DNA from: a virus
Virus record (IMG/VR): IMGVR_UViG_3300011440_000005
Span: 1 to 53,348 of that record
Length of the DNA stretch: 53,348 nt
Strand: one strand, 5' to 3'
The stretch's first letter is position 1, and each line of letters opens with the position of its first letter. Of the stretch, positions 1,101 to 50,843 are shown piece by piece. Below the pieces are notes generated by a model that saw only the letters and a program-made list of their open reading frames with translations, was not told the origin of the DNA and ran no database searches. The position numbers were made by a program, and so were the translations under genes.

Positions 1101-1123
1101 GGACATCCCACGGGTGGTAAGTG

Positions 1124-1378
1124 ATGAAGCACCGTATTCCCCTCAATCCATCGTCTGCTGACCGTTTAAAGCAGGAGACAGAGAGGCTGGGTACCGGGGA
1201 GACCCTCTGTGGCTACATCAACGACGACGGGGAACTGATCCCCTTTGTCATGCCCGAGGAAGCCTCAGATGTTGAGGTGGCTCTTCGCACCTTTGAACTA
1301 AAGAACGGGCGTCCCATGAACACGTTGGAGTCCAGAATGCTCGATTTGGTGGTACAGGCCCGTGAAACGCAAGCCTGA
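1124..1378 (+). CDS. Hypothetical protein
   Basis: ORF 1121..1378 (GTG 1121, ATG 1124); sits between terminase and portal; 3' end overlaps the portal start. Confidence 0.55.
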   Translation: MKHRIPLNPSSADRLKQETERLGTGETLCGYINDDGELIPFVMPEEASDVEVALRTFELKNGRPMNTLESRMLDLVVQARETQA

Positions 1379-3313: not shown

Positions 3314-3744
3314 TGGCGCTCTCCCCTGACCTTGAGAAGCGGGAGCTACCGGGCGGGAACACCAGTAAACCCGAGTCCGGTACCTACGGCGAGAAGGCCG
3401 CTCTAGCGAACCTGGAGTCAAGCCTTCCCATGGACGAGTCGCACGTCGAAGGGCAAGACTTGGACCCGATGCCTCGCCAGCCGGAAGGGCTGCCGGGGAT
3501 CGACGAAGCTGGTCGTCCACCCAGTGGCCCTCCTGGGCTTCCGTCTGCGCTGCTCCACCCCACGGAGTTGCCCGGGGTCGACGTCAACACTCCGCTCCAG
3601 CCTGCTCCCACCTCGGGGATGGCTTCCGCTGTGGACGACCGCCAGCGCCGTCTGCTGGTCCTCACAGACCTTGCTGAGTCACCTGACACGAGCGAGGCGA
3701 CCAGGGAGTGGGCGAAGATTCTGATTGAACTGCTCACGTCCTGA
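3313..3744 (+). CDS. Hypothetical Pro-rich acidic protein
   Basis: 143-aa ORF, start coupled to the upstream stop; its end overlaps the start of the next ORF by 1 nt. Confidence 0.55.
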   Translation: MALSPDLEKRELPGGNTSKPESGTYGEKAALANLESSLPMDESHVEGQDLDPMPRQPEGLPGIDEAGRPPSGPPGLPSALLHPTELPGVDVNTPLQPAPTSGMASAVDDRQRRLLVLTDLAESPDTSEATREWAKILIELLTS

Positions 3745-9322: not shown

Positions 9323-9736
9323 ATGCTATGCACGACAGAAGGCTGCAACCGTCCCGCTCAGATCGACAAGACACTCTGCGGTTGGTGCTATCAGGGGACT
9401 CGCCCGAAAAAGCCTAGGAAAGATCGACGGGAAGCTGGTCGAAGGTACTACCAGAAGAAGCGGGCAGAAGACTCGGAGTACCTCCGCACAATAGGGAACC
9501 GGCCCTGGCTTGATGACCTGAAGGCTTCGACTCCCTGCGCTGATTGTGGGCAGATATACCCTGCTTGCGTGATGGACTTCGATCATCGTCCTGGTGAAGA
9601 GAAGCTCTTTAGGGTTGCAGGCATGGTTACTCGTCGTCGAGAGCTTGTCGAAGCTGAGATTGAGAAGTGCGACATTGTTTGCTCCAACTGTCATCGGATT
9701 CGCACTCATCTGACTCGCAAGGGCCGAAATGCTTGA
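9323..9736 (+). CDS. HNH endonuclease (second copy, different family)
   Basis: CADCG...MDFDHRPGEEK...IEKCDIVCSNCHRIRTH pattern typical of actinophage HNH proteins; ATG 9323 (TTG 9320 in the track). Confidence 0.8.
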   Translation: MLCTTEGCNRPAQIDKTLCGWCYQGTRPKKPRKDRREAGRRYYQKKRAEDSEYLRTIGNRPWLDDLKASTPCADCGQIYPACVMDFDHRPGEEKLFRVAGMVTRRRELVEAEIEKCDIVCSNCHRIRTHLTRKGRNA

Positions 9737-12700
9737 CAACGTAAAGAGTGTAGATCATAACTTGCAGGCTATTCGCACCATTGAGAGTTCCTGGTCGCTC
9801 CCAGCTATCCCCGATGAGGTCAAACTCGACCTGGCGTCCTACACGCAGCTAACCCCTGCTGCCCTTTCCTCGCTCATGTACGGCCTCCAGGCCGACCTGG
9901 ACGAAGCGCAGAAGTCCGCTCTTCCTGCTCGTGACCCCGAGTCGACTCCCCTCTTCCGTGCCCAGCCCACCCAGTTTGCCCAGGAACTGGAGCAGGCACC
10001 ACAGCCGGAACCCGAATCCCTCGGCAGCTTCATCTACGGCGTGACCGGCACCCGTTCCCCCCAGGAGTTGTCCCGTGACTCGGTGATCGACTTGAAGACT
10101 CGGGCAGTCGAGAAAGGCTACCTCGACCTTACCCCCGCTCAGCAGGCTTCACCGTTGTGGCTTCCCGAGTACAGCCATGTGGCCTCGGAGATGGCCTACG
10201 ACGACATGGTGCAGGAGTTCTCCGGGCAGAAACCCGGCTCCGTGAGCATCGCCCAGGTGGGTGACATGGTGGAGAAATGGCTCTCCCCTCGGGGTCTCTA
10301 CAAGGCGGCTGTCGACCTGGACTTGTGGTGGGACTTCGACGCCATCGAGCGTGAGTTCTCAGGCTGGAAGGCGAAATGGAGCAAGTTTGCCGATGAGCCA
10401 TGGAACCCCATGAACCTCATCGACGCTCTCACTGGACCGATAGACGACGTCTTGTTCCCCATCATCAACTGGGGTCTTTTGGCTACCGGCGTGGGGGAAG
10501 TATACGCCACAGCCAGAGCGCTAACGTTGGTTGGTAAAGCAGCCACGATAGCAAATCCTGTAGCGGGTCTCTTCCGTGGGGCGAAGGGACTCCGCTACTT
10601 TGGTCGGTTCGCCAACGCAGCAGAACGGGCACTCATCCCAGCCGACCGTGCAGCCGACATAGCTCGCCTGCAAACCCAGTCGCTGATGTCGACCTTGATG
10701 ACCCCCACCGGCAAGGTTCCCGGCACCATCGTGGGTCAGGGGCTGGAGGCTTTCCGTGGTGCCTCAGCCACCCAGGCCGTGTCCGCTCAGATGGCACGCT
10801 GGCGGCAGTTGAGCGGCGTGGTTCTGGCGAAGAAAGCCAACCAGCAGGTCATGCGAATGGGGTTCGCCTCCAACCTCCAAGACCTGGTTGACGAAGAGCA
10901 AGGCGGGTCGGTGGCTCGGGTGACACCCGTTGATGATTGGATCAACGAGGCCATGTCCAACCCTCTGGTGGACTGGTCGGTGGACCTGTTGCTCATGCCC
11001 CCGAACATCTTCCAGCCTGGCATGTTTACACGCACAGCCACCGAGGTCGCCAAAGGGGTGACCGACAACAAGGGGATGGCTGAAGCTTTCTACCGCTCCA
11101 CCCGTGAACACCTCAGGGAGTCCGGTGGCGAAGAGGCTGTGAAAGAGTTTGAGCGCTCCATCGGCTCAGGCATGACCGGCAAAGGTCGAGGCTTGGTGCA
11201 GGCGCTGGCTGACGCCAGGACAGGGGGCGACGTCGAAGCTCTCGGGTCACAGATGGCCTACGTCACGGTGATGGCTTCGATTGACTCGCACGCTCGCACC
11301 CTCGCCAACGTGGAGCATGGCAAGAAGCTGGTGGACCTGATGGACGGCGACGACATCGTGTCGTTCCATCGGCACCGGGATCAGGCGATAGCTCAGCTAC
11401 GCAAACTGGGCGAAGACGACGTGGACACAGCGCTCCGTACCCTCGCCTACACGGACCCCGACCAGGTGAAGCGTAAGGGTTTGGCTGCCGTCGAGGCACG
11501 TTACAACACCCTCAGGGAGTCGTTCTCGGAGACCCAAGGGGAACAGATCGGTCGGGCTGGCCGCACACCCAACAACCACAAGCGCCTCTACGGGTACCGC
11601 CAGCGGGAAGACCCGGAGATTGTCCGCTGGACGAGCGACCTGAACACGGCTCGCCAGCACAACAGCGACCCCTACTTCGTGGACGTCAACCTCGACGAAT
11701 ACAAGCGCATCACCGGCAAAGCCCTTGGCGACGGTGACATAGACGACGTACCCGAAGGCTTGTTCAACCGCTATAGGGTGACCGGCATCGAAGGGTACAA
11801 GATCGTGCCGAAGTTGTCGCAGGCTCCGAAGGTCCGCATGTACAACTCGGAGAAGTTGACCCGGTTGCAGGATTTGATTGCGGCTCACAACGGTAAGAGG
11901 AACGCTCTCCTGCGGGACATGATGACCAACCTGAACCCGAGGGTGCTGGAACAGTACGACTATGAGATAGCCGACACCTACGGGAAGTGGACCGACTTCT
12001 ACTCTGGTGTCGACGAGTTGCGTGCTGCTGGACGTCGAGGCGACCTGAACAATGTGAAGTATGCGTCACCGGTTTCCCCTTCGGGACGGAGGGTTGCTTT
12101 CGACCCTGCCCCACCGGACGGGAAGAAGATGACCGACCGCATGTTTGAGTTGCACCAGCAGATGGCTGACGACCCTGACCTGGCGACCATGCTGAACAAG
12201 AGCGTGTTCTCCTGGTTCGGACGTGACATTGACGGTGGCATCCCCCGCTTCACGATAGGCCGTATGGACTCTCCCACCAAGCAGGACGTCCTGTCGCAGG
12301 TGGCCTATGCGAAGCTCCAGGTGGATCATCTGACGAGCTTCCAGCGTATCGCCCGGGGTGAGCGTATGGCGCAGATCACCGCTCGGGCTGACGAACTGAT
12401 AGGTCGTGCTGCCGATGAGGGCCGACCGCTGGGTGACTATGTGGAAGCTCTGATCGCTGAGTTCCAGATCAACGCTAAGCAGGCTGTCCGCATCAAGCGC
12501 CTGGTGAAGCTTGCAGCCGACCAGGGTATCTCCTTCGGAGACCTGGAGCGGGTGCTGGCCGATGAGGTTCACCGGTTGAATTTCGACCCGGCATGGTCGG
12601 AGAAGTGGGGCCTCGCCACGGGTTACGGTGGTGACGATGCCGTGAAAGGTCTCACCGCCAAATGGAAGGAACTGCGCCGCAGGTCACACTTCTACGCCTC

Positions 12701-15113
12701 CGAGGTGACCGGTGTTCCAGGCAAGCTCTCCGACCGCCTCTCCCAGTCGGGCTATCGGGTTGTCCACGGTGTTGAGTTCGGCGCACCCGAGGACGTGTTG
12801 GACCTGGTGCCCGAGATAGGTGACCTGACCCGACGTCAGCTGCAGAAAGCGAACTTGTCCCAGTGGTTCGGACGTCAAGCACCCGAGTATATCCGCAAAG
12901 AGAAGACGAAAGTTCTCACCTCCAGCCTGTGGTCGAACCTGACCCAGGGGCAGAAGAGGGGCGAGCAGGTCGTCGGTAACTTCGGCCCCGCCGCCACCTT
13001 GGACAACGGTGATTTGAAGAGAGTGGTTGATGACCTCCATGAAATCTTGTACGATGAAGTGCAGCGCCCAACTACTGAAGCTCTGGAGAATGCGAGAAAG
13101 ACCCGTGGACCGGTTGGACGTGCTGGGGCTAGATGGTCAGCCATGCTCACCCCAATGTCCGTGGAATCACTCGCTTCTGATATCGGTTACAAGCGCTTCA
13201 GTTCGCTTCTGAAAGCACGAGGCTACTCGGATGACGAAGTAAGAGCCATCTACAAGTCGGTGCAATCCGCTAAGAAGCTGGGGTTCAAAGACCAAGGGCT
13301 GTTCTCAATAGAAGCCCACCTTCGTGCCAACCCGGTACTGCTCGACGGGTTGCGACTCATGTCCCGTCATCAGATCGCTGACTCCTATGTGAAGAAAGCA
13401 GCGGGTACCAGCTTCACGTTCGGTGGGACCATGGGTGGTGGTCTGCTCGCTTCCGCTGAGGTGAGCCAACGTGACCCTGAGGCTGGCATCGCTGAGCGTG
13501 CCTTGGCGTTCGGTGTGGGTGCTGCTGCTGGTCGCATGGGGTCGAGTCTCATCAACCGCAAGCTCCTGGGCGCTATGCCCAAGGGCACGGGTCTCATCAG
13601 CAAGGGAGCCGACGCTTGGGAGCGGAGCCGCTACCTGCACTGGGCGTACCTCCCCGACAAGCTTGCCACCATCAGGGACTACGTCCGGTTTTCCCTCTCT
13701 CCCGTGTTCGACGCCTCCAGGTACACGGAGTCGATGATCCTCGGACAACTGGAGGGCACCGCTGAGGGTCTGCGTCTGCCGGTGAACCTGTCACCCTCCA
13801 ACTTCCGCAGGACAGTGGCGAAGGAAGCGAAGTTGGCTGGCGCTTCCGCTGACTCCGCTGCCCGCCAGGCTGAATCAGAGTGGGCTAGGGTCAGTGATGA
13901 ATTCGCCCACGCTGCCAGAGGCGACTTTGAGTGGGAAACCATTGATGGTCTCTCCCGGCGTTTCTCCAGCATCGGTATCCTCGGGTTCTCCCCTGCCAAC
14001 TGGATGGCTGCCACTTTCGCCCACTTGCGCCGTCAGGGTGTTGACGGGCAGAAGGCTTACAAGATGGTGCGTGATGTGTACACATACGGCACCACCGGTC
14101 GGTCCGCTGCTGAGCTTTCCATGAACTTCGTGTTCTTCCCCTTCTCGTTCACGAAGAAGACAGTGAAGCATATGAGTCGCTTCTTCAACCAGGACCTGTC
14201 CCGTTTGATAATCACCCAGGATATGATGGCGACTTATAACCTGCTGAACGAGGAATACAACCTCTCGGAGATGTGGCGGGAGCGCCTCCCCATCTTGGAT
14301 CGTCTGCGCCGCCTCAACCTGCTGGCCTACGGTGTCGGCCTTGGACAGTTCGGTGGCGTGAACGCTCCCCTTTTGGCGGCAGCACGGGAAGTTCCCGGCC
14401 TCGGCTCCCTCTATGTCGGGCCGCAGATAGACACCATTGCCTCCGCAACTGGCATGGAGATAGACCCGATCCTCAACTTGTTCATCCCCCAGTCGGTGAG
14501 TATGAGGAACGCAGAGGACGCCAGTGCCATCGAGGAACTGGTGCGGCGTGCCGTGCCTGCCTGGAACGACGTGCAGTCACTGGTCGACGACCTGGGCGAG
14601 CAGGGGAAGGTCGTCTTCTCCCAGACCCACATGACCACCTCGGCGGAGGTGAACCGTGCCTACACGGAGTGGCGTGAATACCAGGACACCTGGAAGCCTT
14701 TCATGATAACCCAGGATCGCTCGTGGGATTCGCTGATGGCTGACCCCGTGTACTCGGCCATCATCAAGCAGAAGCGGGCGGAGATACAGGACAAGTACCC
14801 CGCTTGGCGGGAAGCTCGGGCGCAGGCTGTGGAGAACCAGACGCTCATCGACATGGAGAAAGGTGAGCGCCTGGCTAACCCTGGTGACCCTGGTGATGAC
14901 CAGTTGGTCAAGTTTGAGTTTGTTCTCAAACAGCAGAAGAGCGCATTGGAGGAACAGAACGTCAGCTTGATAGGTGACTACGCCGATCCTCTCGCTCAGG
15001 ATCGGATGCGTGCGGTCGCCATCCAGCTTGTGGGTGAGAACCCTCAGTTCCTGAGACTGTACAACAAGTTCTATCGCTCAGATTTCGGGGATATCAGTCG
15101 GGAAGTCAAATGA
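9729..15113 (+). CDS. Giant hypothetical virion/internal protein (1794 aa)
   Basis: Uninterrupted 5.4-kb ORF; Gly-rich hydrophobic stretch (GGTMGGGLLASA...AFGVGAAAG); no catalytic motif recognised. Confidence 0.85.
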   Translation: MLDNVKSVDHNLQAIRTIESSWSLPAIPDEVKLDLASYTQLTPAALSSLMYGLQADLDEAQKSALPARDPESTPLFRAQPTQFAQELEQAPQPEPESLGSFIYGVTGTRSPQELSRDSVIDLKTRAVEKGYLDLTPAQQASPLWLPEYSHVASEMAYDDMVQEFSGQKPGSVSIAQVGDMVEKWLSPRGLYKAAVDLDLWWDFDAIEREFSGWKAKWSKFADEPWNPMNLIDALTGPIDDVLFPIINWGLLATGVGEVYATARALTLVGKAATIANPVAGLFRGAKGLRYFGRFANAAERALIPADRAADIARLQTQSLMSTLMTPTGKVPGTIVGQGLEAFRGASATQAVSAQMARWRQLSGVVLAKKANQQVMRMGFASNLQDLVDEEQGGSVARVTPVDDWINEAMSNPLVDWSVDLLLMPPNIFQPGMFTRTATEVAKGVTDNKGMAEAFYRSTREHLRESGGEEAVKEFERSIGSGMTGKGRGLVQALADARTGGDVEALGSQMAYVTVMASIDSHARTLANVEHGKKLVDLMDGDDIVSFHRHRDQAIAQLRKLGEDDVDTALRTLAYTDPDQVKRKGLAAVEARYNTLRESFSETQGEQIGRAGRTPNNHKRLYGYRQREDPEIVRWTSDLNTARQHNSDPYFVDVNLDEYKRITGKALGDGDIDDVPEGLFNRYRVTGIEGYKIVPKLSQAPKVRMYNSEKLTRLQDLIAAHNGKRNALLRDMMTNLNPRVLEQYDYEIADTYGKWTDFYSGVDELRAAGRRGDLNNVKYASPVSPSGRRVAFDPAPPDGKKMTDRMFELHQQMADDPDLATMLNKSVFSWFGRDIDGGIPRFTIGRMDSPTKQDVLSQVAYAKLQVDHLTSFQRIARGERMAQITARADELIGRAADEGRPLGDYVEALIAEFQINAKQAVRIKRLVKLAADQGISFGDLERVLADEVHRLNFDPAWSEKWGLATGYGGDDAVKGLTAKWKELRRRSHFYASEVTGVPGKLSDRLSQSGYRVVHGVEFGAPEDVLDLVPEIGDLTRRQLQKANLSQWFGRQAPEYIRKEKTKVLTSSLWSNLTQGQKRGEQVVGNFGPAATLDNGDLKRVVDDLHEILYDEVQRPTTEALENARKTRGPVGRAGARWSAMLTPMSVESLASDIGYKRFSSLLKARGYSDDEVRAIYKSVQSAKKLGFKDQGLFSIEAHLRANPVLLDGLRLMSRHQIADSYVKKAAGTSFTFGGTMGGGLLASAEVSQRDPEAGIAERALAFGVGAAAGRMGSSLINRKLLGAMPKGTGLISKGADAWERSRYLHWAYLPDKLATIRDYVRFSLSPVFDASRYTESMILGQLEGTAEGLRLPVNLSPSNFRRTVAKEAKLAGASADSAARQAESEWARVSDEFAHAARGDFEWETIDGLSRRFSSIGILGFSPANWMAATFAHLRRQGVDGQKAYKMVRDVYTYGTTGRSAAELSMNFVFFPFSFTKKTVKHMSRFFNQDLSRLIITQDMMATYNLLNEEYNLSEMWRERLPILDRLRRLNLLAYGVGLGQFGGVNAPLLAAAREVPGLGSLYVGPQIDTIASATGMEIDPILNLFIPQSVSMRNAEDASAIEELVRRAVPAWNDVQSLVDDLGEQGKVVFSQTHMTTSAEVNRAYTEWREYQDTWKPFMITQDRSWDSLMADPVYSAIIKQKRAEIQDKYPAWREARAQAVENQTLIDMEKGERLANPGDPGDDQLVKFEFVLKQQKSALEEQNVSLIGDYADPLAQDRMRAVAIQLVGENPQFLRLYNKFYRSDFGDISREVK

Positions 15114-20032: not shown

Positions 20033-20106
20033 AGTTGAGTTCGACTCCATTCTGAGGACACTCTGCGGGGGGTATGTGAGAACCCCTTCGGTTCCCCAGG
20101 CTTGAA

Positions 20107-28810: not shown

Positions 28811-29323
28811 ATGAGAAACCTTAGACGTAAGTTCATCATCCTTGCGGCCCTGGCCGTGGCCCTTGTGGCTCTCGGTGGAGCCAAGCCACCCAACTCGGAG
28901 GTATTGGAGGTTGTGTCCCAGGACGTGACCATCAACGCCAACGCCTCCGAGGTCACCTGCATCACCCCGTTCTTCGATGGTGGTCCCGCACACACCGGGT
29001 ATTGCTACAACTACAACGACGCTAATTGCTCCCCGGTTCAGCACCCGTTGACCAAGGTCTTCTTCAAGAGTGTGGGTACCGCTCAAGGCGCTAAGACCGC
29101 AGCAACCGTGATGATGGATGACAACGACGACCCCCCTGACTTCAAGACTACCTATCATCGTCAGGGAATAGTCCCTGGTGATGGTTGGAAGAAGGTAGCT
29201 CAGAAGGGCGGCAACATTGGCGACCTGGGCGACACTCTTCTCACAGGGCGAGGGTCCGGGTGGATCACGGTGACGGGCATAGGTCAATTCTTGATCCTGG
29301 TGAGGAACACTTGCACCGTTTGA
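28811..29323 (+). CDS. Exported or membrane-anchored protein (N-terminal signal/anchor)
   Basis: ATG 28811: MRNLRRKFIILAALAVALVALGGA...; locally AT-richer start region. Confidence 0.65.
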   Translation: MRNLRRKFIILAALAVALVALGGAKPPNSEVLEVVSQDVTINANASEVTCITPFFDGGPAHTGYCYNYNDANCSPVQHPLTKVFFKSVGTAQGAKTAATVMMDDNDDPPDFKTTYHRQGIVPGDGWKKVAQKGGNIGDLGDTLLTGRGSGWITVTGIGQFLILVRNTCTV

Positions 29324-29346
29324 GGACACTGCTCGGGCGGTAGGTG

Positions 29347-31278
29347 ATGAAACTCACCAAGAATCTTCTCGCCCTTGTCCTTGTCTTGCTGTTGGGTGGG
29401 GGAGCCACCTATGCGATAGCCCAATCTGACACTGTCACCATCCCTTTCGCTGAAGGTGACAAGGTTGTCCTTGATCTACCAGGTGACCTCAATGTGGTGC
29501 TGGAGGGTGTGGTGGAGACCACAACCACCACTACGGCTCCAACAACCACGACCACTGAGCCGCCCACTACCACAACCACGGAACCTCCGACGACCACTAC
29601 GGAGGCCACCACAACCACGACGTTGCCGCCTACGACGACAACGCTGCCGCCTACCACCACGACGGTCCCGCCGACAACGACGACCACAAGCCCCCCGGAG
29701 GGCCTTTGCGGGCCTGTTGATCGTACCATTACTGGCAATCAGCCTGGGTTTGTGGTACCTGAGGACGAACATTGGCGAGTGACCGGAACGCTCACCTCCA
29801 CGGGCACCATCATGGTCCACGGTTGCTTGTCCGCTCGCTCTGGTGTGACCATCAACATGGGTGGCAACCAGATACAGGTCATGGGCGACTCCAATTCGAT
29901 GGGTGTCCTCGACTTCGACGGGGGTAACGGTGGCCCACGGTGGACCCATGCTGACGGCTCCCCTTTACCCACAGGTTGGGCGCAGGGCACGACGGTACTA
30001 GCCGCACCCCACGTTCAGGGAGTCCGAGCCTCAAGTTCCGTCACTCTCGGCGCAAACCTGCCAACTCTGACCTACCCGGTTCCCGCTCACTCCCCTGCGT
30101 TCACTGAGCTTGTCCGCACCAATGCGGGGATCACTGTCAACCTCGCCAGCCGCATCATGTGGATGGTCGAAGGCGAGGACCAGGTGGGCGACGTGGCCCC
30201 CCTCATTCCCGGCTGCCCGTGTCCTTCACTGTTCTCCAATGTAGCCGTGATCGACTCGGGCAATGCCACAGCTAACGGTGGGTTGAGTTTCTATCCCATC
30301 CACTTCCACAGGGTAGGTAACAATGTCAGAGGAACAGTCGTCGATCACTCACTCGTGCTGCGGGGCAAGAATCACGCTTACGTCGCCCACGCTGCCCACG
30401 GAATCACCTTCCGGGACTCTGTGGCTGTTGATCCCGAAGGGGCTGCCTTCTGGTGGGACGTACGAGAAGCTGGCCGAGGAACTGATCCAGACCCTAGCTC
30501 TGAATCAGATGACGTGGTCTACGACCGAGTTGGGGTGCTTGGACAGCGACCAGGGAACGGTGTAGAAGCTCCACCGGAGACCACCGCTCTGCTCATCGGT
30601 CACGGTGTCGGCAACGTCATGCGTGATTCGTGGGTGGCTGGCTCACAGCTACAGGGTATACCCAACGGCTCCTGCGTCCACTGGTCCGCTGTAACCAACG
30701 GCTTTGAAGACACCTGGATCGTTGAACGCATCACCTGCCATCATTCCACCCAGGAGAACGGCCACTTCTGGTGGTACAACCACACGGGTTCCGGTGGAGG
30801 CGACGCTCACTTCGTCGTTGACAACATCATCGTGGACGCTGGGCAGAATGCCATAAGGGTGGGCGCTTACAACCAGTCGAGCGAACCAGCTAAGTACGTC
30901 AACCTTGTAACTGATGGGCGCATCCTCCTGAACGTGCAGGGTGTGAACACCCAGTCGCAGGACCATGTCACCATCCAAGGTGGGCACGCCGCCAACATCA
31001 CCGTCGCTCACCACGTCGCTGCTGGTCGAACCGAGTCAGCCACTGTTCGTCCCTCCTTTGAGGTGATAGGCATGGACTTGGAAACAGGTGTCATCATCAA
31101 CGAAAGCCTGGGCGGGCAGACGCAACCTGGTCGTGGAAGGTTCAGCGGTGTGACCGTGGACGGTTCACCGATTACGAGGTCGCAGGTGACCACACCGTTC
31201 ATCCAGTCGGGTTCCCGCTACTCGTTCTCCAATAACACTTGGCCCAACCAGACTTTCAGTTTCCATGTCCCTTCCTGA
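29347..31278 (+). CDS. Secreted protein: signal peptide, Thr/Pro-rich linker, beta-helix-like putative glycan-degrading domain
   Basis: MKLTKNLLALVLVLLLGGGATYAIA/QSD. About 60 aa of T/P repeats (c. 29520-29700). The YPIHFH string is, from memory, reminiscent of G8/parallel beta-helix glycanases. Confidence 0.75.
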   Translation: MKLTKNLLALVLVLLLGGGATYAIAQSDTVTIPFAEGDKVVLDLPGDLNVVLEGVVETTTTTTAPTTTTTEPPTTTTTEPPTTTTEATTTTTLPPTTTTLPPTTTTVPPTTTTTSPPEGLCGPVDRTITGNQPGFVVPEDEHWRVTGTLTSTGTIMVHGCLSARSGVTINMGGNQIQVMGDSNSMGVLDFDGGNGGPRWTHADGSPLPTGWAQGTTVLAAPHVQGVRASSSVTLGANLPTLTYPVPAHSPAFTELVRTNAGITVNLASRIMWMVEGEDQVGDVAPLIPGCPCPSLFSNVAVIDSGNATANGGLSFYPIHFHRVGNNVRGTVVDHSLVLRGKNHAYVAHAAHGITFRDSVAVDPEGAAFWWDVREAGRGTDPDPSSESDDVVYDRVGVLGQRPGNGVEAPPETTALLIGHGVGNVMRDSWVAGSQLQGIPNGSCVHWSAVTNGFEDTWIVERITCHHSTQENGHFWWYNHTGSGGGDAHFVVDNIIVDAGQNAIRVGAYNQSSEPAKYVNLVTDGRILLNVQGVNTQSQDHVTIQGGHAANITVAHHVAAGRTESATVRPSFEVIGMDLETGVIINESLGGQTQPGRGRFSGVTVDGSPITRSQVTTPFIQSGSRYSFSNNTWPNQTFSFHVPS

Positions 31279-32278: not shown

Positions 32279-32484
32279 CCTGTCCGTTCTGCTCGGAGGA
32301 AACACCAGCTAACCGCAACTCCTGCCAGGCGTGTAAGCACCTGCTGAAGCGGGTGGTGCCACGGTTCCGCTGGGTGGGTGGCGCACCATCCAACTCTAAG
32401 CTGGAGATGTTCTGGACGACGGGCGAGCCTTCAGTGTTCGCTAGGCCTGGTGCCCCCGACTACAACCCTCGCTGGGATGTCTAA
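32275..32484 (+). CDS. Small zinc-ribbon-like protein
   Basis: GTGA overlap with the upstream stop; VTCPFCSEE...CQACKH. Confidence 0.5.
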   Translation: MTCPFCSEETPANRNSCQACKHLLKRVVPRFRWVGGAPSNSKLEMFWTTGEPSVFARPGAPDYNPRWDV

Positions 32485-32801
32485 CGGCAATGCCGCTCTT
32501 GCCACCCCATCGTACAATGCCCCCCGCCACTCCCCCCGCCCATCCAGTCGGGAACGCCTTCGATAAATGGTTCCCCCGGCTCGGGGATGATGTCGACCCA
32601 GCCGAGTCGGTCAGCCACTACTGCACCTGCGGCAAGGCAGCCGAGGAACAACAGGGTTGCGAGCCAGTCCTTTAGATGGACGAGGAAATCTTTCTTCTTA
32701 CTTGTGACCACGAGGGGTGTGACAACATCACCCTCTCGGTGAACGGACGCACGTCGATTGGGTGGTATGTGACTTGGGAACATCAGTTCTGTTCCAAACA
32801 T
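32481..32801 (-). CDS. Candidate membrane protein (mutually exclusive with + ORFs 32490..32675 and 32676..32846)
   Basis: Starts 10 nt after the stop of 32812..33060; has a KKKDFLVHLKDW + LATLLFLGCLAAGAVVA TM-like segment. GC3 does not discriminate between the strands. Confidence 0.3.
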   Translation of the reverse strand: MFGTELMFPSHIPPNRRASVHREGDVVTPLVVTSKKKDFLVHLKDWLATLLFLGCLAAGAVVADRLGWVDIIPEPGEPFIEGVPDWMGGGSGGGHCTMGWQERHCR

Positions 32802-32846
32802 CGTCCACCGGTCATAAGGGATCGCTCTCGTCCATCGTCACGATGA
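32676..32846 (+). CDS. Candidate 56-aa Cys/His protein (mutually exclusive with the minus ORF 32481..32801)
   Basis: ATG directly after the TAG of + ORF 32490..32675; MDEEIFLLTCDHEGCDN...WEHQFCSKH. It would overlap the convergent gene 32812..33060 by 35 nt. Confidence 0.3.
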   Translation: MDEEIFLLTCDHEGCDNITLSVNGRTSIGWYVTWEHQFCSKHRPPVIRDRSRPSSR

Positions 32847-33060
32847 TGTACAACGTGCGGTGGTCACCAGGGCAGACGTAGTACCACTTGTCGCCCTCGC
32901 CCTTGTGATAGAACGTTCTGTCAGGTTTCCGGTCTGTCCGAGTCCACAACACTGGCCCGTAGTTATACGGGTCATTGTCGGTGACGTGAACCGCACCTTC
33001 GTAGTCGCACCAAACGAAGCCATTGACTTCCTGTAGGGGTGGGGTCATCTTGGTCTTCAT
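32812..33060 (-). CDS. Hypothetical protein downstream of integrase
   Basis: ATG 33060 in ATGA overlap with the integrase stop; 82 aa. Confidence 0.6.
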   Translation of the reverse strand: MKTKMTPPLQEVNGFVWCDYEGAVHVTDNDPYNYGPVLWTRTDRKPDRTFYHKGEGDKWYYVCPGDHRTLYIIVTMDESDPL

Positions 33061-33962
33061 ATGTCCCAACCTGCCTTCCTCACCGCTCGGGCGGCAGCGT
33101 CGGCCCGCTTCTCCAAGTAGACCTGGGTGGTGCCCAGGTTGCTGTGCCGCAGAGCGGCAGAGGTCGCTTCGATCCCAGCGAGCTTGTGTACCTGACCGGC
33201 GAACGACCGTCGCATGTCGTGCGGACTGAACTTCCCGTAGCGGCGCACCACGTTGTATACACCACTCCCGGAGAGCCGTTGACCCCACTCAGGGGTCTGG
33301 CTAACTTCCCCGGTAGCGAAGTTGACCAGTCTACGGAACCGTACTATCACCGGAGAGGCCCCCAGAACGCCGTCTAAGCCATTCTTTGCCTCGACCCTTA
33401 GGTGGGAGAGGGTAGAAGCCAGAGAATCGCTCACAGCGACGACAGCAGCCTTCCTGTTCTTACCCACGACTCGTATCTCCCTGCGTTCCAGGTCCACGTC
33501 GCCCCAGTTGAGGCTGGCTATCTCCGTGCGGCGGAGACCACAACCGAAACCGAGGCGTAGGATCGCCATGTCACGGACCCCCATCAGGGTGTCAGGTACC
33601 GCCCCCAGGACGTCCTCTATCTCGGAGCGCTCCATCCAACGATGCACAGCCACAGGCACCGGCTTTACCGGCACGAGTGCAGTGAGCCTAGCGGCAGGAT
33701 TGCTGGGGATGAGGTCACGGGTGTGCGCCCAGGTGAAGAACCCTTTCAGGTGGGAGCGGTAGTTGGTGCGGGTGGTGTCGCCGCAGGTCTGCTCCAGCAA
33801 CCAGTCGACGAGGTGCTTCTCAGTGAAGTTTTCCAGGTCGACGTGCGGGTAGCGCTCCTGCACTCGGGACAGGAGCCTGCGGTAGGTGGTGGCAGACTGT
33901 GTGGTGTGCAACCAGGTTGGGTCCGCTGCTCCCAGTTTAAACGCTTCGGGGTAGAGCCTCAT
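33057..33962 (-). CDS. int: Tyrosine recombinase / integrase (XerC/D-sized, 301 aa)
   Basis: ...HDMRRSFAGQV...LRHSNLGTTQVYLE is the C-terminal catalytic H-x-x-R ... H ... Y pattern; SAM-like N-terminal domain; start MRLYPE in ATGA overlap with the upstream micro-ORF (alt. 33989). Confidence 0.9.
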   Translation of the reverse strand: MRLYPEAFKLGAADPTWLHTTQSATTYRRLLSRVQERYPHVDLENFTEKHLVDWLLEQTCGDTTRTNYRSHLKGFFTWAHTRDLIPSNPAARLTALVPVKPVPVAVHRWMERSEIEDVLGAVPDTLMGVRDMAILRLGFGCGLRRTEIASLNWGDVDLERREIRVVGKNRKAAVVAVSDSLASTLSHLRVEAKNGLDGVLGASPVIVRFRRLVNFATGEVSQTPEWGQRLSGSGVYNVVRRYGKFSPHDMRRSFAGQVHKLAGIEATSAALRHSNLGTTQVYLEKRADAAARAVRKAGWDI

Positions 33963-34084
33963 TGCATGCCCGCTCTGCACCCCCGGCACACCCAGGTAGC
34001 CAGGAAGTATTGGTTCAGCAGGACTCCGCTGAGGACATCCATCTCATCGAGGGGGTACGTCCACTTGCAGATTTCACAAGCCAT
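33959..34084 (-). CDS. 41-aa zinc-ribbon micro-protein (MACEICKW...CRGCRAGMQ)
   Basis: Not in the ORF track (<60 aa); two CxxC pairs; stop overlaps the integrase start (ATGA). Confidence 0.4.
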   Translation of the reverse strand: MACEICKWTYPLDEMDVLSGVLLNQYFLATWVCRGCRAGMQ

Positions 34085-45449: not shown

Positions 45450-45631
45450 ATTAAGTACTCCAATCTCAGGGCAGCGCACTCTTTGCAGCGCAGCTTCCCT
45501 GTTCGTTTCGCTTCCTTGATTACGGTGGTCTGATTGACGGGCTGCCAACCCACCACTTCGACCTGGATTTGGTCACGGGCAGTGAGAGCGGTTCCGCATT
45601 TAACGCAGAGGCCGAGTATCATCTCAGCCAC
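45446..45631 (-). CDS. Zinc-ribbon protein
   Basis: CVKCG ... CKEC; start GTG 45631 or ATG 45622. Confidence 0.6.
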   Translation of the reverse strand: MAEMILGLCVKCGTALTARDQIQVEVVGWQPVNQTTVIKEAKRTGKLRCKECAALRLEYLI

Positions 45632-45818
45632 GCTCCCACCACCTCGGGTGTTGGTAGACGGCCCTATTGCCCCTTTCGGGACAACTCGGGCTGCATACGA
45701 ACAACCCCACGCCTGGCATGTCGGGATAGTTGGCGGGGGTCAGGTAGGTGTTGAAGGCGGGTGTGTCTATCCCACACAGCGCACATACTGGTTCCCACGG
45801 TTTACGCTTAGCGTTCAC
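45624..45818 (-). CDS. Small Cys-rich protein
   Basis: GTG start with GGAGG 8 nt upstream; CALCG ... CSPSC. Confidence 0.55.
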   Translation of the reverse strand: MNAKRKPWEPVCALCGIDTPAFNTYLTPANYPDMPGVGLFVCSPSCPERGNRAVYQHPRWWERG

Positions 45819-45839
45819 CAGTGGCCTCCAAATGGTCAG

Positions 45840-45927
45840 GTAGAACGTTCGGACGTTCTACTACGGTCTTCTGAGGTCATGGTCGTGCGCCTTGGGGCTG
45901 GACGAGTGTAAGCCCTTCACCAGCCCC
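45840..45927. promoter_or_regulatory. Two further hairpins in the 270-nt gap
   Basis: gtagaacgt-tcgg-acgttctac (45840-45861) and ggggctgg-N18-ccagcccc (45894-45927). Confidence 0.4.
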
Positions 45928-45958
45928 TCGGCGTTCCTGTCTTCCTCCTTGTGGTCAG

Positions 45959-46062
45959 CCGGTCCTGGTTTGGACCGGTCATTGAGGGGCAGCCTATAGG
46001 TAGGTCCAAAGCCTTACCGGATAAACCGGACACTTGGCACTAAACCCTGCCCCTCAATGGCC
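45959..46062. promoter_or_regulatory. Double-hairpin element A (paralogue of 48636-48723)
   Basis: S1 ccggtcc-tggttt-ggaccgg; S2 cattgaggggcag ... ctgcccctcaatg (13 bp). Flanked by an SD-like string, aggaggaagaca in minus sense, with no start codon after it. Confidence 0.55.
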
Positions 46063-46080
46063 CACCTCGTAGTCGAGGTG
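46063..46080 (-). terminator. Hairpin just downstream of gene 46091..46339
   Basis: cacctcg-tagt-cgaggtg, 7-bp stem. Confidence 0.35.
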
Positions 46081-46090
46081 AGCCAACCTT

Positions 46091-48192: not shown

Positions 48193-48408
48193 TCACCAGC
48201 GGTCGACCTCATGCTCCCATTGAGCCTTCTCAACCTGGCTCATTGCTTGCCACTCTTTGAACTGGTCGAGGTGGCCTAGGCACATCGGCTCGTCCTTGCT
48301 GACGATTGCTCGCTCGCAACGACCACCCGAAGGGCCGAAGTCCTCATCGAAGTAAGGCACTATCTCGGCGCAAAGACCAGCGTCGTGAAGTGCTTCCTCG
48401 TAGTTCAT
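48193..48408 (-). CDS. Hypothetical protein
   Basis: 71 aa with a TAGGAGGAAG RBS. Confidence 0.65.
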   Translation of the reverse strand: MNYEEALHDAGLCAEIVPYFDEDFGPSGGRCERAIVSKDEPMCLGHLDQFKEWQAMSQVEKAQWEHEVDRW

Positions 48409-48419
48409 GCTTCCTCCTA

Positions 48420-48617
48420 TCAGATCGTCACGTCGAAATGGTCAATGGTCAGAACGTTGCTGTCGGGCAGCATCACTTCGTAGTAACGCTCATCAGCGGG
48501 GTAACGGCGAACCGAAACCTCAGTGCCAACAGCAAAGCTTGCACCAGTGAAATGACCAATCTCCCGGTTCAACCATGCGGTGAACCAGGGGTTGTTTGAA
48601 TCTTGGAAGTAGCTCAT
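48420..48617 (-). CDS. Hypothetical protein, first gene of the leftward block
   Basis: ATG 48617 (MSYFQDSNNPW...) after AGGAGGAAGACAA; the track start 48656 lies inside element B. Confidence 0.6.
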   Translation of the reverse strand: MSYFQDSNNPWFTAWLNREIGHFTGASFAVGTEVSVRRYPADERYYEVMLPDSNVLTIDHFDVTI

Positions 48618-48635
48618 TTGTCTTCCTCCTATCAG

Positions 48636-48723
48636 CCGGTGACGTTCACCGGTCATTGAGGGGATCAGAGCATCCAGGCTTGCCTAGGTTCCTGGTAGCT
48701 ATAGCCCGATCCCCTTAATGGCC
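48636..48723. promoter_or_regulatory. Double-hairpin element B (paralogue of 45959-46062)
   Basis: S1 ccggtga-cgt-tcaccgg; S2 cattgaggggatc ... gatccccttaatg (13 bp, one G.T); lies 19 nt from the start of 48420..48617. Confidence 0.55.
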
Positions 48724-49795
48724 CGCCAGGTTGTCCTAGCGAGCCGAAGGAAGAAAAAGAGGTTCTCACTCACCCCTGCGTGACCTGGCCGTGGTTGTCT
48801 CTCCACGGTCGCCCGCTCCCGAGGTGGTCGGGGTGGTCCTTCCGGTGCTGCGCACCTTCAGCTTTCCCCTGGCGATCGGCTGGAGAGCCGATCAACCCCC
48901 TCCGGGGTCAAGGCCAGGTTCTGAGGGCAGGAGCCACTCCCGAGGCCGGTGGTGACCTTGGCCCGAGGGCTGATCGAGTACCGGCAAGCCGGACTCTAGT
49001 CGACCAGTACGACAACGTCAAGTTCACCAGTAAACCCCAGTTCTGGCCGTTCTCGAGAAGGTTGCACAGTGCAACCAACAGGGGAACGGGCCGAACTGCC
49101 CGATAAGCCTGGCGCTTAACCCCCCGCCCCCAGTGGGTGGAGCGAAATTGAGCGCCCACTCAAACTAAGGCTGGCACCCGAAGGAGGGGCAGCACGCAGG
49201 TAGATGTCAAAGACAGCGCCACTAACAGAGGTGATGCACCAGGCACCATGCGGTGGTGATGCAGCCAACAGCCTTACAGCGTTATATAGCTCACTCGAAC
49301 AGTGTTCGATAGCTCAAATGAGTGTGATCTGCACCCACAACGAGCACGTGACCAGCCCGTCCTGCGAGTGCAACGGTCCAACCAACAACACAGCGCACAA
49401 ACACCCAGGTCAGGAGCAGAAATCAACACCAACAGCCGAAAGGCTGACCGGGGTCCATTTATTTCCCCAGCAGCAGTGTGGGGAAGGTCACTGTCACAAG
49501 TACCGGACAGTCCAGTGTCTGTTAGGGGTGCTAGTAGCCTGTTTAGTAGCTGTTTGTTGGCTTGGGCCAGGTCAACTTGGGGCTTGGTGGGGGCTTCGCC
49601 CCCTTTAGCCACCTGTTTCTTGGTGTTTGTCAGTGGTTGACTACATGTGGAGGGGGTGTCCCACCCCCGACGTGTCAGCAAACTAAGAACTAGTGCGGCT
49701 TCGCCGCCTTGCTGGACGCAAAGAACGACCCTAGGGCCGGGGGGGTATCTTTCGACTGTGCCTGGTAGGGGCTGCCAGGGCTAGACGAAACCCGG
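48724..49795. other. 1.07-kb region without credible ORFs; hairpin- and repeat-rich (candidate large ncRNA(s) and/or replication origin)
   Basis: All track ORFs here have implausible composition. Multiple 6-9-bp perfect stems, tandem repeats and an AT-rich palindrome are listed under findings. Confidence 0.6.
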
Positions 49796-50278
49796 TTAGG
49801 AAGGTAGAACCTTCTGGACTCGACGCTTCAATTCTTGTAGCTGCTCGTCAACAGTGGAGTTGACACTCGGACGGCTGTCGGTGTTGGTTACGCTCCGCCC
49901 AGCCCACGAATCTTTGTTGGTTCGTTGAAGCTGGTCGATGAGCCTGGAGGCTTCTCGCCTGGCGATGGGTATTTCCCCAGCCCAGCCAAGACCTCGTATG
50001 TAGTTCCGCTGTGCCTGGGTTGTCTCCCACCCTGGCGCTGCTGGCTTCCTAACAGGTCGGGACGAGCGGACTAGTGGTTTCTGCTCCAATGGTCGGGTGT
50101 CTGCTCCAACGAGCTTCGCCCAAGCTTCGATCCGGCTCGGGTCGTTGCGGAGTAGGCCGATGAGTTGAGTGGCCGCTCCGAGGGTGGGCGGGATTTCCGC
50201 CTCCCATCCCATTGAACGGAGAGTGTCGATCTCTCGTTGTGATGGGCCGACCTGGCCTCTCCGTCGTCTTGTGGTCAC
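49796..50278 (-). CDS. Hypothetical protein with two copies of a c. 35-aa helical repeat
   Basis: SQREIDTLRSMGWEAEIPPTLGAATQLIGLL and TQAQRNYIRGLGWAGEIPIARREASRLIDQL; GTG 50278 preferred over the Arg/Pro-rich extension to 50389. Confidence 0.55.
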   Translation of the reverse strand: MTTRRRRGQVGPSQREIDTLRSMGWEAEIPPTLGAATQLIGLLRNDPSRIEAWAKLVGADTRPLEQKPLVRSSRPVRKPAAPGWETTQAQRNYIRGLGWAGEIPIARREASRLIDQLQRTNKDSWAGRSVTNTDSRPSVNSTVDEQLQELKRRVQKVLPS

Positions 50279-50444
50279 TGTCTCTTCCTGCTGTCGTGTT
50301 CGATGGTGGAAGCCCCGCCCCCCGAGGGGGGAAGGAGGGAAAACCACCTCGGGCACCCTTGCGGGCCAGCCTGAGCGAGGCTTCCACACATACCCCCCGA
50401 GAAGTGTCCTCAGAGGGCTTGACCAAGCTAGCCGACCAGTCGAC

Positions 50445-50473
50445 TTGCATGCAAGGGTTGACTCGTCTAAGGT
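50445..50473 (+). promoter_or_regulatory. Candidate promoter TTGCAT-N17-TAAGGT; the -35 lies inside the 12-bp palindrome cttgcatgcaag
   Basis: Read directly; about 140 nt upstream of the first rightward gene. Confidence 0.3.
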
Positions 50474-50612
50474 GTGGGGGTACGCACTGACTAAGCCGTA
50501 ACAGGCAGAAAGAACGTGCCTACAGCGTCACCCGCAGGGGCGGGGGGAAGTTCTCTAGCGGAACTACCGCTTGGAACCCGCCCCGGTGGGTTTAAACGAA
50601 AGGAGTTGAGAG

Positions 50613-50843
50613 GTGGCAGTAGAGATAACAGCGGCTCCGTCACGGGAGCGTGACGTTGTTGGGGTGCTGCTGTACGACGAGCACCACGAGAATTTCAGTC
50701 TCAGCGTCAACATTTCGGTGGATGAGGCGAAAGACCTGATCTACAGGCTCGAAGTGGCCGTTCGCAAGATCGAACGCCGAGGGTCGCCGGATGAGTCCAT
50801 TTGGGGGCATCGGCATCCGAGTTACGACGAGATGGGAGGCTGA
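50613..50843 (+). CDS. Hypothetical protein
   Basis: GTG start with a GAAAGGAG RBS; 76 aa. Confidence 0.6.
   Translation: MAVEITAAPSRERDVVGVLLYDEHHENFSLSVNISVDEAKDLIYRLEVAVRKIERRGSPDESIWGHRHPSYDEMGG

Follow-up and report, generated by a model that had tools for sequence, protein, structure and literature searches.

The window analysed here, a stretch of 53,348 nucleotides, is a complete circularly assembled phage genome of 53.2 kb (123-bp overlap), whose hosts are probably Acidimicrobiia. Its plus-strand structural genes begin with TerL, which spans the circle junction, and a leftward block starting at 48617 encodes a primase, a DnaB-like helicase, an exonuclease and a SprT-like protease. 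Next to this block lies the largest gap of the genome, more than twofold above any other. It measures 1178 nt, slightly longer than the 48724-49795 of the original prediction, and is bordered on the left by the ATG of the first leftward gene (48617, with a good SD) and on the right by the stop of a 197-aa gene (49796). No tRNA or tmRNA was found. The features are as follows.

48618 to 49795, no strand: the whole gene-free stretch, bounded by the start codon (ATG) of the first leftward gene and the stop codon of the minus-strand 197-aa gene
48612 to 48748, minus strand: R1 copy 1, a suggested structured leader element (paralogue comparison; MFE -59.3 kcal/mol)
45938 to 46087, minus strand: R1 copy 2, between two leftward genes and outside the stretch (CM 172.6 bits; MFE -75.8 kcal/mol)
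48748 to 48777, minus strand: terminator- or attenuator-like hairpin, then UUUUUCUUCCUUC (terminator scan)
48976 to 48996, minus strand: 21-bp palindrome GAGTaCCGGC-AA-GCCGGACTC, overlapping the candidate promoter
48996 to 49008, minus strand: 13-nt motif CTAGTCGACCAGT, overlapping the candidate promoter
49021 to 48993 (region 48976 to 49021), minus strand: candidate early leftward promoter TTGACG-17-TAGAGT (sigma-70 consensus match)
49038 to 49098, no strand: 61-nt imperfect palindrome (arms of 30 nt with 77% complementarity), immediately ahead of the candidate promoter
49260 to 49266, no strand: site A (TGCAGCC), a putative cos-type cleavage region and physical genome end, from contig ends
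49276 to 49293 and 49299 to 49316, plus strand: two 18-nt direct repeats ACAG(C/T)GTT..ATAGCTCA, 23 nt apart, just inside the putative left end
49330 to 49440, plus strand: C/A-rich tract (72% C+A), ending in GCAGAAATC and then the hairpin CAGCC-GAAA-GGCTG
49441 to 49511, plus strand: motif B, ACCGGGGTCCAT...GGGGAAGG...GACA, candidate terminase-recognition (cosB-like) site
49520 to 49588, plus strand: G/T-rich tract (74% G+T), containing a tandem TAGTAGCCTGTT twice
49585 to 49613, plus strand: terminator-like hairpin GGUGGGGGC-UUC-GCCCCC-UUUAG-CCACC, with a perfect 6-bp stem and a short U run
49652 to 49668, no strand: GC hairpin GGGGGTG-TCC-CACCCCC, with no U tail on either strand
49707 to 49695 and 49739 to 49726, minus strand: two terminator-like hairpins, 57-100 nt past the stop of the 197-aa gene (terminator scan)
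49796 to 50389, minus strand: 197-aa gene with two DUF3072-like helix repeats, called in all assemblies

The original prediction had called the region free of plausible ORFs, and this is borne out. In three public assemblies of the same phage the gene callers place no gene within 48618-49795, all five ORFs of at least 83 aa have negative scores under a log-odds model of codon use with the family as training set, and tblastn matched none of the five (0/5) in 79 related loci. That unrecognised or decayed genes are nevertheless hidden in the stretch is very improbable: ORFs of 83-135 aa do occur on both strands, and a plus-strand ORF of 134 aa has a hydrophobic C-terminal segment adjoining a hairpin, but the scores, the missing calls and the missing matches argue against them, as do a 1-nt insertion after 49013 in a near-identical genome, within two of the five ORFs, and a putative DNA end at 49260 inside the 134-aa ORF.

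A gap of 1.0-1.5 kb between the leftward block and TerL is present in almost every relative with enough upstream DNA. At the DNA level, no similarity to the region, near or distant, was found in 50,697 GenBank phages, and searches of the 79 related loci gave no BLAST or nhmmer match. Closer relatives for covariation analysis were absent from the collections searched, the TerL homologues jumping from 100% to 55% identity.

Contigs of the same phage break off at one place within the gap. From the left, L244 stops at 49266 and L245 at about 49262, and from the right L001 begins at 49260. Six contig ends of this lineage fall in the region; three of the six lie within 7 nt at site A and derive from different samples and assemblers, and the others are scattered (49210, 49170 and 49030). 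In the relatives L024, L218 and L081 the contigs start from one identical position within a conserved CTT|GC(G/C)CCGCT, 185-189 nt upstream of motif B (191 nt in the window), and two more (L237 and L077) begin at most 15 nt from the homologous site, to which site A of the window, GA|TGCAGCC, bears a loose resemblance only. The coinciding contig ends suggest 49260-49266 as a physical genome end of the cos type. Site A lies upstream of the terminase gene, as expected of a cos from which packaging proceeds towards that gene, at 2.95 kb from TerL in the window and about 0.6 kb in the relatives; site A and motif B are on the same side of TerL and in the same orientation in all cases. The opposing contig ends overlap by 3-7 nt (TGCAGCC), a hint of complementary overhangs that is suggestive only, and assembly breaks at a strain-variable site could mimic a genome end. 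Neither a genome terminus nor a packaging site had been among the readings offered originally.

Three contigs of relatives (L019, L045 and L040) begin at motif B instead of site A, which a simple cos at A does not explain. They leave a small chance of a T7-like arrangement, in which a short direct terminal repeat of some 190 bp would span the interval between site A and motif B, in place of cohesive ends at A. The relatives would then owe their two hotspots of contig starts, 185-190 nt apart, to this repeat, and L081 and L045, which have identical motif-B regions and apparently belong to one lineage, do start at A and B, respectively. T7 has SRL/SRR arrays of short repeats beside its terminal repeat, which the strand-asymmetric tract of short repeats recalls. 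However, contigs of the window's own lineage that come from the left stop at A (49262, 49266) and not at B (49450), and all contigs starting at B run rightwards, the wrong direction for the right boundary of a repeat.

Motif B, about 70 nt long, is the only sequence common to the window and relatives with approximately 50% TerL identity. It occurs on the TerL strand in at least 27 distinct relatives, distant ones included, and its alignment contains invariant columns. An HMM built from 27 relatives, without the window, has its sole match in the window at 49441-49511 in the expected orientation (E = 0.0016). The conserved family motif can be written as GAAAC-N26-GGGGTSCATAA...GGGGAAAGG. No conserved secondary structure was found around it, which fits a protein-binding sequence. 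An alignment of 330 columns between site A and motif B gave weak alifold energies on both strands (-15 to -17 kcal/mol), and a conserved RNA structure between the two was rejected for this reason. A promoter -10 element (TAAGAT) within motif B was likewise rejected: the last T is present in about half of the lineages, and the window reads TTTATT. Promoter scans of the relatives were uninformative.

Motif B is a candidate terminase-recognition site. In the relatives, the interval from the gap to TerL contains no gene for a small terminase. Pfam HTH domains are present in several TerL homologues, and the TerL of the window has a weak SpoIIID-type HTH match at residues 17-70. Motif B would be the recognition sequence of the family, about 190 bp inside the left end and on the terminase side, where the large terminase would probably bind it with its helix-turn-helix N-terminus; its counterpart in lambda would be cosB, with site A in the place of cosN. 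Further parts of the packaging region may be the two 18-nt repeats and the tracts on either side of motif B, C/A-rich and G/T-rich. Most relatives also switch from C/A-rich to G/T-rich across motif B; they have a stronger C/A tract and the conserved GAAAC 26-28 nt ahead of the motif. The 18-nt repeats, putatively a protein-binding site, have no further copies anywhere in the genome.

On the other side of site A, the signals point leftward. A scan of 48300-50800 returned one sigma-70-like site only, TTGACG-17-TAGAGT at 49021-48993, which has the spacing of 16-18 nt and the TANNNT -10 box of sigma-70/SigA promoters and precedes the first leftward gene by about 370 nt. The 21-bp palindrome, a putative operator, overlaps it, and so does the 13-nt motif, which recurs exactly once more (50428-50440) in the other promoter region; CTAGYCGACCAGT may be the target of the phage's repressor candidate. 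The early promoters proposed originally are thus plausible, although the site is a consensus prediction of which about 0.5 chance matches are expected in the 2.5 kb scanned. The 61-nt palindrome could be an insulating terminator or a protein site.

Between the candidate promoter and the first leftward gene lies the R1 element, consisting of an 11-bp hairpin H1, a long-range helix H2 that closes a variable hairpin, and a 7-bp hairpin H3. In copy 1, H3 is followed by CUGA and then by AGGAGGAAG, the SD of the first leftward gene. All 25 of the 25 modelled pairs are kept in both copies, with four doubly compensatory changes (outside the aligned columns there are two more pairs in H3 and two in H2), the U.G pairs are compatible with the minus strand only, and slid control alignments pair in 27-50% of the cells. 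With two sequences only, the covariation was matched by 32 of 500 shuffles. The two copies are the sole matches of the CM; R1 was not found in the relatives or IMG/VR, and has no match in Rfam. The two copies are paralogous, and the observations on them no more than suggest a structured RNA element, which would probably control the processing or translation of the first leftward gene. The hairpin at 48748-48777 is predicted to act as a terminator or attenuator, and CUUCCUUC is complementary to the SD 120 nt downstream.

Phage operons punctuated by hammerheads are known from the type II hammerhead RF02276 (Perreault et al. 2011, PMC3088659). The relatives resemble these, with 4-7 hammerheads between their leftward genes (40-61 bits) and, by eye, a hammerhead-like core before the first gene with the SD in one stem. 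At the equivalent place the window has R1, likewise ending in CUGA and the SD; however, it has no hammerhead in 31000-53348 even at E <= 5, and R1 contains CUGAU but not the CUGAUGA/GAAA core that three stems flank in a hammerhead. Self-cleavage of R1 is pure conjecture.

Every stem listed in the original prediction is present at its position. The density of hairpins that it claimed is real, at 2-3 times that of shuffled sequences, but modest in size: dinucleotide shuffles contain 2.0 +/- 1.3 perfect stems of at least 6 bp and 7.3 of at least 5 bp, where the region has six (p about 0.02) and 15, respectively, and the hairpin content is in the top ~6% among windows of the same size in the genome. 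Several hairpins fall within 48780-48975 and 49100-49260, outside all parts to which a function was assigned. The C/A-rich tract at 49330-49440 is also as described. 'Repeat-rich' was an overstatement, the few repeats being two 18-nt direct repeats, one 11-nt tandem duplication and one palindrome. Folding z-scores are clearly negative for 48600-49150 only, with extremes of -5.6 (minus strand, near 48650-48800) and -4.0 (plus strand, near 48950-49100), and 49150-49550 is structured no more than expected by chance.

The original prediction had raised the alternative of one or more large structured ncRNAs of the GOLLD/ROOL kind, without recognising an RNA family by eye. The Rfam scan that it proposed agrees with this failure: against Rfam 15, the whole window gave no match at gathering score (GOLLD, ROOL, hammerheads, twister, pistol, hatchet and riboswitches included), and E-value thresholds returned noise only (19-24 bits against thresholds of 39-83). 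The stretch is like GOLLD and ROOL in being a gene-free, hairpin-rich sequence of several hundred nt in a phage, but it differs in the missing Rfam match, in its unstructured middle third, in having only about 70 nt conserved with relatives, and in probably being interrupted by the genome end. A giant RNA, apparently split by a physical DNA end, is therefore not upheld, and what is left of the structured ncRNAs are smaller pieces, namely R1 on the minus strand here and two plus-strand elements in the relatives. These two, element G (14 of 21 pairs with compensatory changes, 99% of cells paired) and a pre-TerL domain (9 of 25 pairs compensatory), lie at both ends of the homologous gap, and their G.U pairs are possible on the plus strand only.

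A long plus-strand ncRNA of 600-850 nt seems improbable, though slightly less so than a terminal repeat. It would be made after circularisation from a promoter near 48750-49050, cross site A and motif B, and end at the hairpin at 49585-49613, as the window's version of the ~1.1-kb leader of the relatives, for example an antitermination or packaging-coupled regulatory RNA. The covarying plus-strand structures at both ends of the relatives' gap speak for it, as do the folding of the 511-nt block 48750-49260, which is better for the plus strand (z = -3.9) than for the minus (-2.6), the terminator-like plus-strand hairpin that follows motif B in the window and in the relatives (GACAAAACGAC...GTCGTTTTTTT), and a C-rich, G-poor tract that would suit Rho loading. 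However, element G and the pre-TerL domain are both undetectable in the window, the scan of 48300-50800 found no promoter-like site on the plus strand, 49150-49550 lacks structure beyond chance, no Rfam family matches, and a minus-strand gene with its own terminators separates the stretch from the late genes. A likeness to antitermination leaders (HK022 put RNA, lambda pR'-qut-tR' 6S RNA) exists in the relatives only, whose long untranslated leader has a plus-strand element of ~70 nt with two hairpins near its start and then, ahead of the late operon, a C-rich tract plus a terminator-like hairpin; they differ in having no match by sequence or model, and the window lacks the element.

The replication origin of the original prediction received no positive support. 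An origin should show at least three iterons or initiator boxes and an AT-rich unwinding element; the stretch has no iterons beyond two direct repeats and no such element, its lowest local GC being about 42%. Cumulative GC skew has its minimum near 49 kb, which is uninformative since it coincides with the switch in gene orientation. An origin that uses the 18-nt repeats and the palindromes as initiator sites is compatible with promoters in the same region, but I consider it unlikely. The phage does encode its own DnaB-like helicase and primase, the two repeats adjoin the segment of lowest GC (49270-49330), and besides the skew minimum the switch from C/A-rich to G/T-rich sequence across 49450 is as at a bidirectional origin; on the other hand, the orientation switch alone explains the skew, the repeats, only two in number, lack conservation in relatives, and no initiator gene can be recognised next to them.

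Taken together, I lean towards a reading of the stretch as a control region at the termini and the junction of the genome arms, in which DNA and RNA signals form a mosaic, and not as one large RNA, at somewhat better than even chances. The linear virion DNA would end at about 49260-49266, so that in the particle 48618-49260 would be the right genome end and 49260-49795 the left end, joined only after circularisation. The right-end segment would carry a promoter and operator (48976-49021) and then a structured 5' leader of ~370 nt, the last ~140 nt of which would be R1, ribosome-binding site included. The RNA structure of the early leftward operon is proposed because of the paralogue comparison of R1, and its promoter is a prediction. 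None of this overturns current understanding, and a giant ncRNA is not borne out for the window.

This arrangement recalls the cosQ-cosN-cosB region of lambda in its putative fixed end in non-coding DNA, which precedes the terminase gene and shares its orientation, in the conserved sequence between cut and terminase gene (at 190 bp from the cut here, 50-170 bp for cosB), and in late genes that transcription would reach only once the ends are joined. It differs in that no separate small terminase is present and TerL itself seems to carry the DNA-binding HTH, that motif B is unrelated in sequence to the lambda R sites, that the distance from the end to the terminase gene is 2.95 kb here (about 0.6 kb in the relatives), and that the proposed ends derive from contig ends alone. 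In mycobacteriophage L5 and other Cluster A actinophages, which are temperate phages of actinobacteria, early and replication genes are also transcribed leftward, with P-left a few hundred bp from the right end in a gene-free stretch of ~1 kb. The phage of the window would likewise be temperate and actinobacterial, and it is alike in its leftward early genes and in its candidate promoter near the right end within a gene-free stretch of such size, but it has no sequence similarity to these phages, no dispersed repeats resembling stoperators and, probably, Acidimicrobiia as hosts.

The largest 'empty' stretch of an uncultured phage thereby becomes a testable map of a genome end, a packaging signal, an early promoter and a leader, and the conserved motif including GAAAC could mark the termini of a widespread marine and freshwater family of Acidimicrobiia phages in metagenomes. 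Three elements are absent from Rfam: R1, which is suggestive only, and element G and the pre-terminase domain, supported by covariation in the relatives. Since they adjoin dense hammerhead arrays, the family is useful for studying how phages swap RNA-processing devices. More speculatively, and with a probability I would put as low as that of the long plus-strand ncRNA, this phage family would have previously undescribed RNA devices around its genome junction. Transcription of the relatives' structured plus-strand leader of ~1.1 kb, with element G and the pre-terminase domain, would run over the joined ends and on into the terminase gene, and the relatives' hammerheads would have been replaced in the window's lineage by the two copies of the ~140-nt R1. 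If true, the leader could couple circularisation or concatemer formation to the late genes, for example by cis-acting antitermination, and R1, besides gating the ribosome-binding site, would undergo self-processing or recruit a nuclease.

At the right border, the hairpins between 49585 and 49739 are predicted to be terminators of the 197-aa gene, and possibly also of a plus-strand transcript; the one at 49585-49613 fell short of the 5-T rule of the terminator scan. The three GC stems with 3-nt loops had suggested N4-like hairpin promoters for a virion RNA polymerase, an idea that was rejected since the hairpins are better explained as terminators; in the two giant virion proteins, sequence searches of Pfam, NCBIfam and PDB gave no signal of such a polymerase. 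Of the proteins flanking the region, those of 197 aa and 78 aa match near-identical copies only, the former being an orphan at word-index sensitivity. With HMMER, the 197-aa protein has eight weak homologues on its repeat (best E = 2.4e-7), one of which shows a weak DUF3072 match, and the start of its gene carries a promoter-like motif that is common to three late-gene sites.

The window was assembled circularly as a complete phage genome, the first 123 bases recurring as the last 123 (53,225 unique bp, 59% GC), and has the following layout:

across the circular junction: large terminase gene (TerL), 635 aa
after TerL to about 31.3 kb, plus strand: portal, two giant virion proteins, capsid and tail genes
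33057-33989: tyrosine integrase
48617 down to about 31.3 kb, minus strand: leftward block (kinase, phosphoesterase, primase, DnaB-like helicase, exonuclease, SprT-like protease)
49796-50389, minus strand: 197-aa gene
from 50613, plus strand: small genes leading into TerL

The window is only distantly related to cultured phages (capsid at most 34% identity, SprT-like protease at most 47%), and no DNA match to it was found among them. Metagenomic homologues of TerL number in the hundreds at 45-55% identity, with none between 55% and 100%; the MAG records holding such homologues are assigned to the Acidimicrobiia. The giant proteins, of 1587 and 1794 aa, are encoded between the portal and capsid genes (3744-8507 and 9729-15113, plus strand); the first contains DUF7178 and SAM-lyase-like segments, and the second remained unmatched in Pfam, PHROGs, NCBIfam and PDB sequences.

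The largest gap of this genome, 48618-49795, is a real non-coding region, enriched in hairpins. The public gene annotations of three independent assemblies place nothing in it, its ORFs score negatively with a family-trained codon model, and none of them has a tblastn match among relatives. All stems listed in the original prediction are present, perfect stems being two to three times commoner than in dinucleotide shuffles (p about 0.01-0.02), and by stem content the gap ranks among the highest ~6% of genome windows. Only within 48600-49150 does folding stability exceed expectation, the middle part of the gap not being unusually structured. The C/A tract is as described (C+A = 72%), few repeats were found in what had been called a repeat-rich region, and searches for Rfam families, tRNAs and tmRNAs found none in it. 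Near-identical genomes differ in this region only at 49013 (L003) and 49502 (L001). The best reading of the gap is as a genome-end and packaging site, combined with an early leftward promoter and leader and with terminators.

Applying a simple codon-based gene caller to 79 loci around TerL homologues, I found that a gap of 1.0-1.5 kb (2.5 kb once) separates a leftward gene from TerL in almost all relatives with enough upstream DNA. These gaps have conserved blocks in common, none of which BLAST finds in the window. One block is family-wide, and consists of GAAAC, 26-28 nt, GGGGT(C/G)CATAA, about 25 nt, GGGGAAAGG and then GACAAAACGACA, in every case on the TerL strand about 400 nt ahead of TerL. 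Its counterpart in the window, motif B, is located at 49441-49511 (ACCGGGGTCCAT...GGGGAAGG...GACA, preceded at the correct spacing by GCAGAAATC), which is the sole window match of a profile made from 27 relatives with the window left out (E = 0.0016). As there is no conserved pairing around motif B, I read it as a protein-recognition sequence, and as a candidate site for terminase binding. In L001, a contig of the window's own lineage, a 9-nt tandem duplication (CCGGACAGT) is observed within motif B, at 49502. The pre-TerL gap of some relatives holds tRNA genes or tRNA-like (truncated tmRNA-model) matches (L033 9602-9674 and 9777-9849, L052 3389-3469, all plus strand).

Several contigs of relatives that reach rightwards to TerL start at one of two places. 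L019, L045 and L040 start at motif B or at most 13 nt from it, while L024, L218 and L081 start at the same nucleotide of a conserved CTT|GC(G/C)CCGCT, 185-189 nt upstream of motif B, here called site A; L077 and L237 start at most 15 nt from site A. In the window's lineage, L001, which comes from the right, starts at 49260, 191 nt upstream of motif B, and on the other side L244 and L245, which extend from the leftward block, stop at 49266 and about 49262, respectively; these three contigs represent three samples and assemblers. The region has three further lineage ends, making six in all, and these are dispersed (49210, 49170, 49030). With half of the six ends within 7 nt of each other, reached from both sides, and with this position matching the hotspot of the relatives by homology, a physical double-strand end at site A (49260-49266), presumably a cos-type terminus, best accounts for the clustering. 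Given such an end, motif B would be placed as cosB is in lambda, on the terminase side within the left end. A terminal repeat of 190 bp from A to B, as in T7, fits less well, since contigs from the left should then continue to B; a simple cos at A, in turn, does not account for the three contigs starting at B. L045, which starts at B, and L081, which starts at A, have identical motif-B regions. No small-terminase gene is found ahead of TerL in relatives; HTH domains occur in TerL homologues, and the window's TerL has a weak HTH match.

With a cos-type end at site A, the gap would be divided as follows:

48618-49260: left half, right end of virion DNA
49260-49795: right half, left end of virion DNA, with, in order, two 18-nt direct repeats, the C/A tract, motif B, a G/T-rich tract, a terminator-like hairpin (49585-49613, plus strand), a GC hairpin and two terminator-like hairpins (minus strand)

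In the left half, the early promoters of the original prediction are a reasonable proposal, the sole sigma-70-like site in 48300-50800 being TTGACG-17-TAGAGT at 49021-48993 (minus strand); that the gap contains the replication origin proposed alongside them seems improbable. The candidate promoter is overlapped by the palindrome at 48976-48996, already listed in the original prediction, and by CTAGTCGACCAGT, whose only other exact copy (C allowed at position 5) is at 50428, in the other promoter region. Written as CTAG(T/C)CGACCAGT, this motif has exactly two copies in the genome, 48996-49008 and 50428-50440 (plus strand), one per putative early promoter region, and looks like an operator. In the near-identical genome L003, one nucleotide is inserted after 49013, within the candidate promoter's spacer.

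From this promoter a leader of ~370 nt is predicted, with a hairpin and U-tract at its promoter-distal end, where CUUCCUUC is complementary to the SD. The last ~140 nt (48612-48748) are a structured element, R1, of which a second copy is located between two other leftward genes (45938-46087). In each copy, a hairpin of 11 bp is accompanied by a long-range helix that closes a variable hairpin and by a 7-bp hairpin; conserved CAUU, CAAUGA and CUGA separate the helices, and AGGAGGAAGAC comes after them. None of the 25 modelled pairs is non-standard in either copy, four of them having changed at both positions; more compensated pairs are found beyond the aligned columns, and the conserved U.G pairs exist on the minus strand only. 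The copies are paralogous in structure, which, from two sequences, is suggestive of a conserved RNA structure, possibly with a role in processing. A covariance model detects no further copies in the window, 83 related loci or IMG/VR. About 115 nt downstream of the second copy, the gene caller missed a 64-codon ORF with CxxC...C motifs and a GGAGG site (~45624-45818, minus strand), so that the 459-nt "gap" 45632-46090 is partly coding.

In the right half, the two minus-strand terminator-like hairpins are located 57-100 nt past the stop of the 197-aa gene, which is probably real; its protein has weak homologues on an internal repeat (HMMER), one of them weakly matching DUF3072. The start of this gene shares with three late-gene sites the motif TTGAGGACAC-N5-CGGGNGGTAnGTG, a candidate phage-specific (late?) promoter or initiation signal:

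1098-1130, plus strand: directly before start codon 1124
20050-20080, plus strand: about 60 nt before the gene at 20140
29321-29350, plus strand: directly before start codon 29344/29347
50414-50380, minus strand: directly before the start codon of the 197-aa gene

The relatives contain several RNA elements:

L020 2016-4537, L007 3406-4685, L076 6058-8479, minus strand: hammerhead arrays, spacing about 350-450 nt
L007 4849-4930, minus strand, also L020, L022, L030: hammerhead-like core
L020 5025-5115, L027 5932-6018, L012 1854-1941, L017 2660-2749 and others, plus strand: element G
L007 5745-6008, homologous in 13 relatives, plus strand: pre-TerL conserved stretch, roughly 260 nt

The arrays consist of four to seven type II hammerhead ribozymes (Rfam RF02276, 40-61 bits) between leftward-operon genes; multi-hammerhead phage operons were already known (PMC3088659), and the window has none. 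The hammerhead-like core (CUGAUGAG...GAAAC), recognised by eye ahead of the first leftward gene and unreported by Rfam at gathering score, has an open stem, an anti-SD pairing with the SD of that gene. R1 occupies its position in the window. Element G, of about 70 nt and without an Rfam entry, comprises two hairpins enclosed by P1; in a model-fitted alignment, compensatory changes are observed in 14 of 21 pairs, and 99% of cells are paired versus 45-59% in slid controls. The pre-TerL domain shows compensation in 9 of 25 pairs, many G.U pairs possible on the plus strand only, and covarying hairpins such as GAGC-UGUCGUC-GCUC and CCGACCAGCC...GGCUCGGG; the terminase mRNA probably has this stretch as its structured 5' UTR. 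Judging by both structures, the terminase operon of the relatives probably has a structured plus-strand leader that takes up much of the gap and crosses the joined ends. Neither structure is detectable in the window, where the minus-strand gene and several small genes intervene between gap and TerL. The alternative first put forward for the gap, one large structured ncRNA, is unsupported for the window, while the relatives probably transcribe their own version as a long structured leader.

Elsewhere in the genome, a 533-nt gene-poor gap (32279-32811) separates the end of the plus-strand block at 32278 from a small minus-strand ORF (32812-33060) abutting the tyrosine integrase, and is the likely location of attP.
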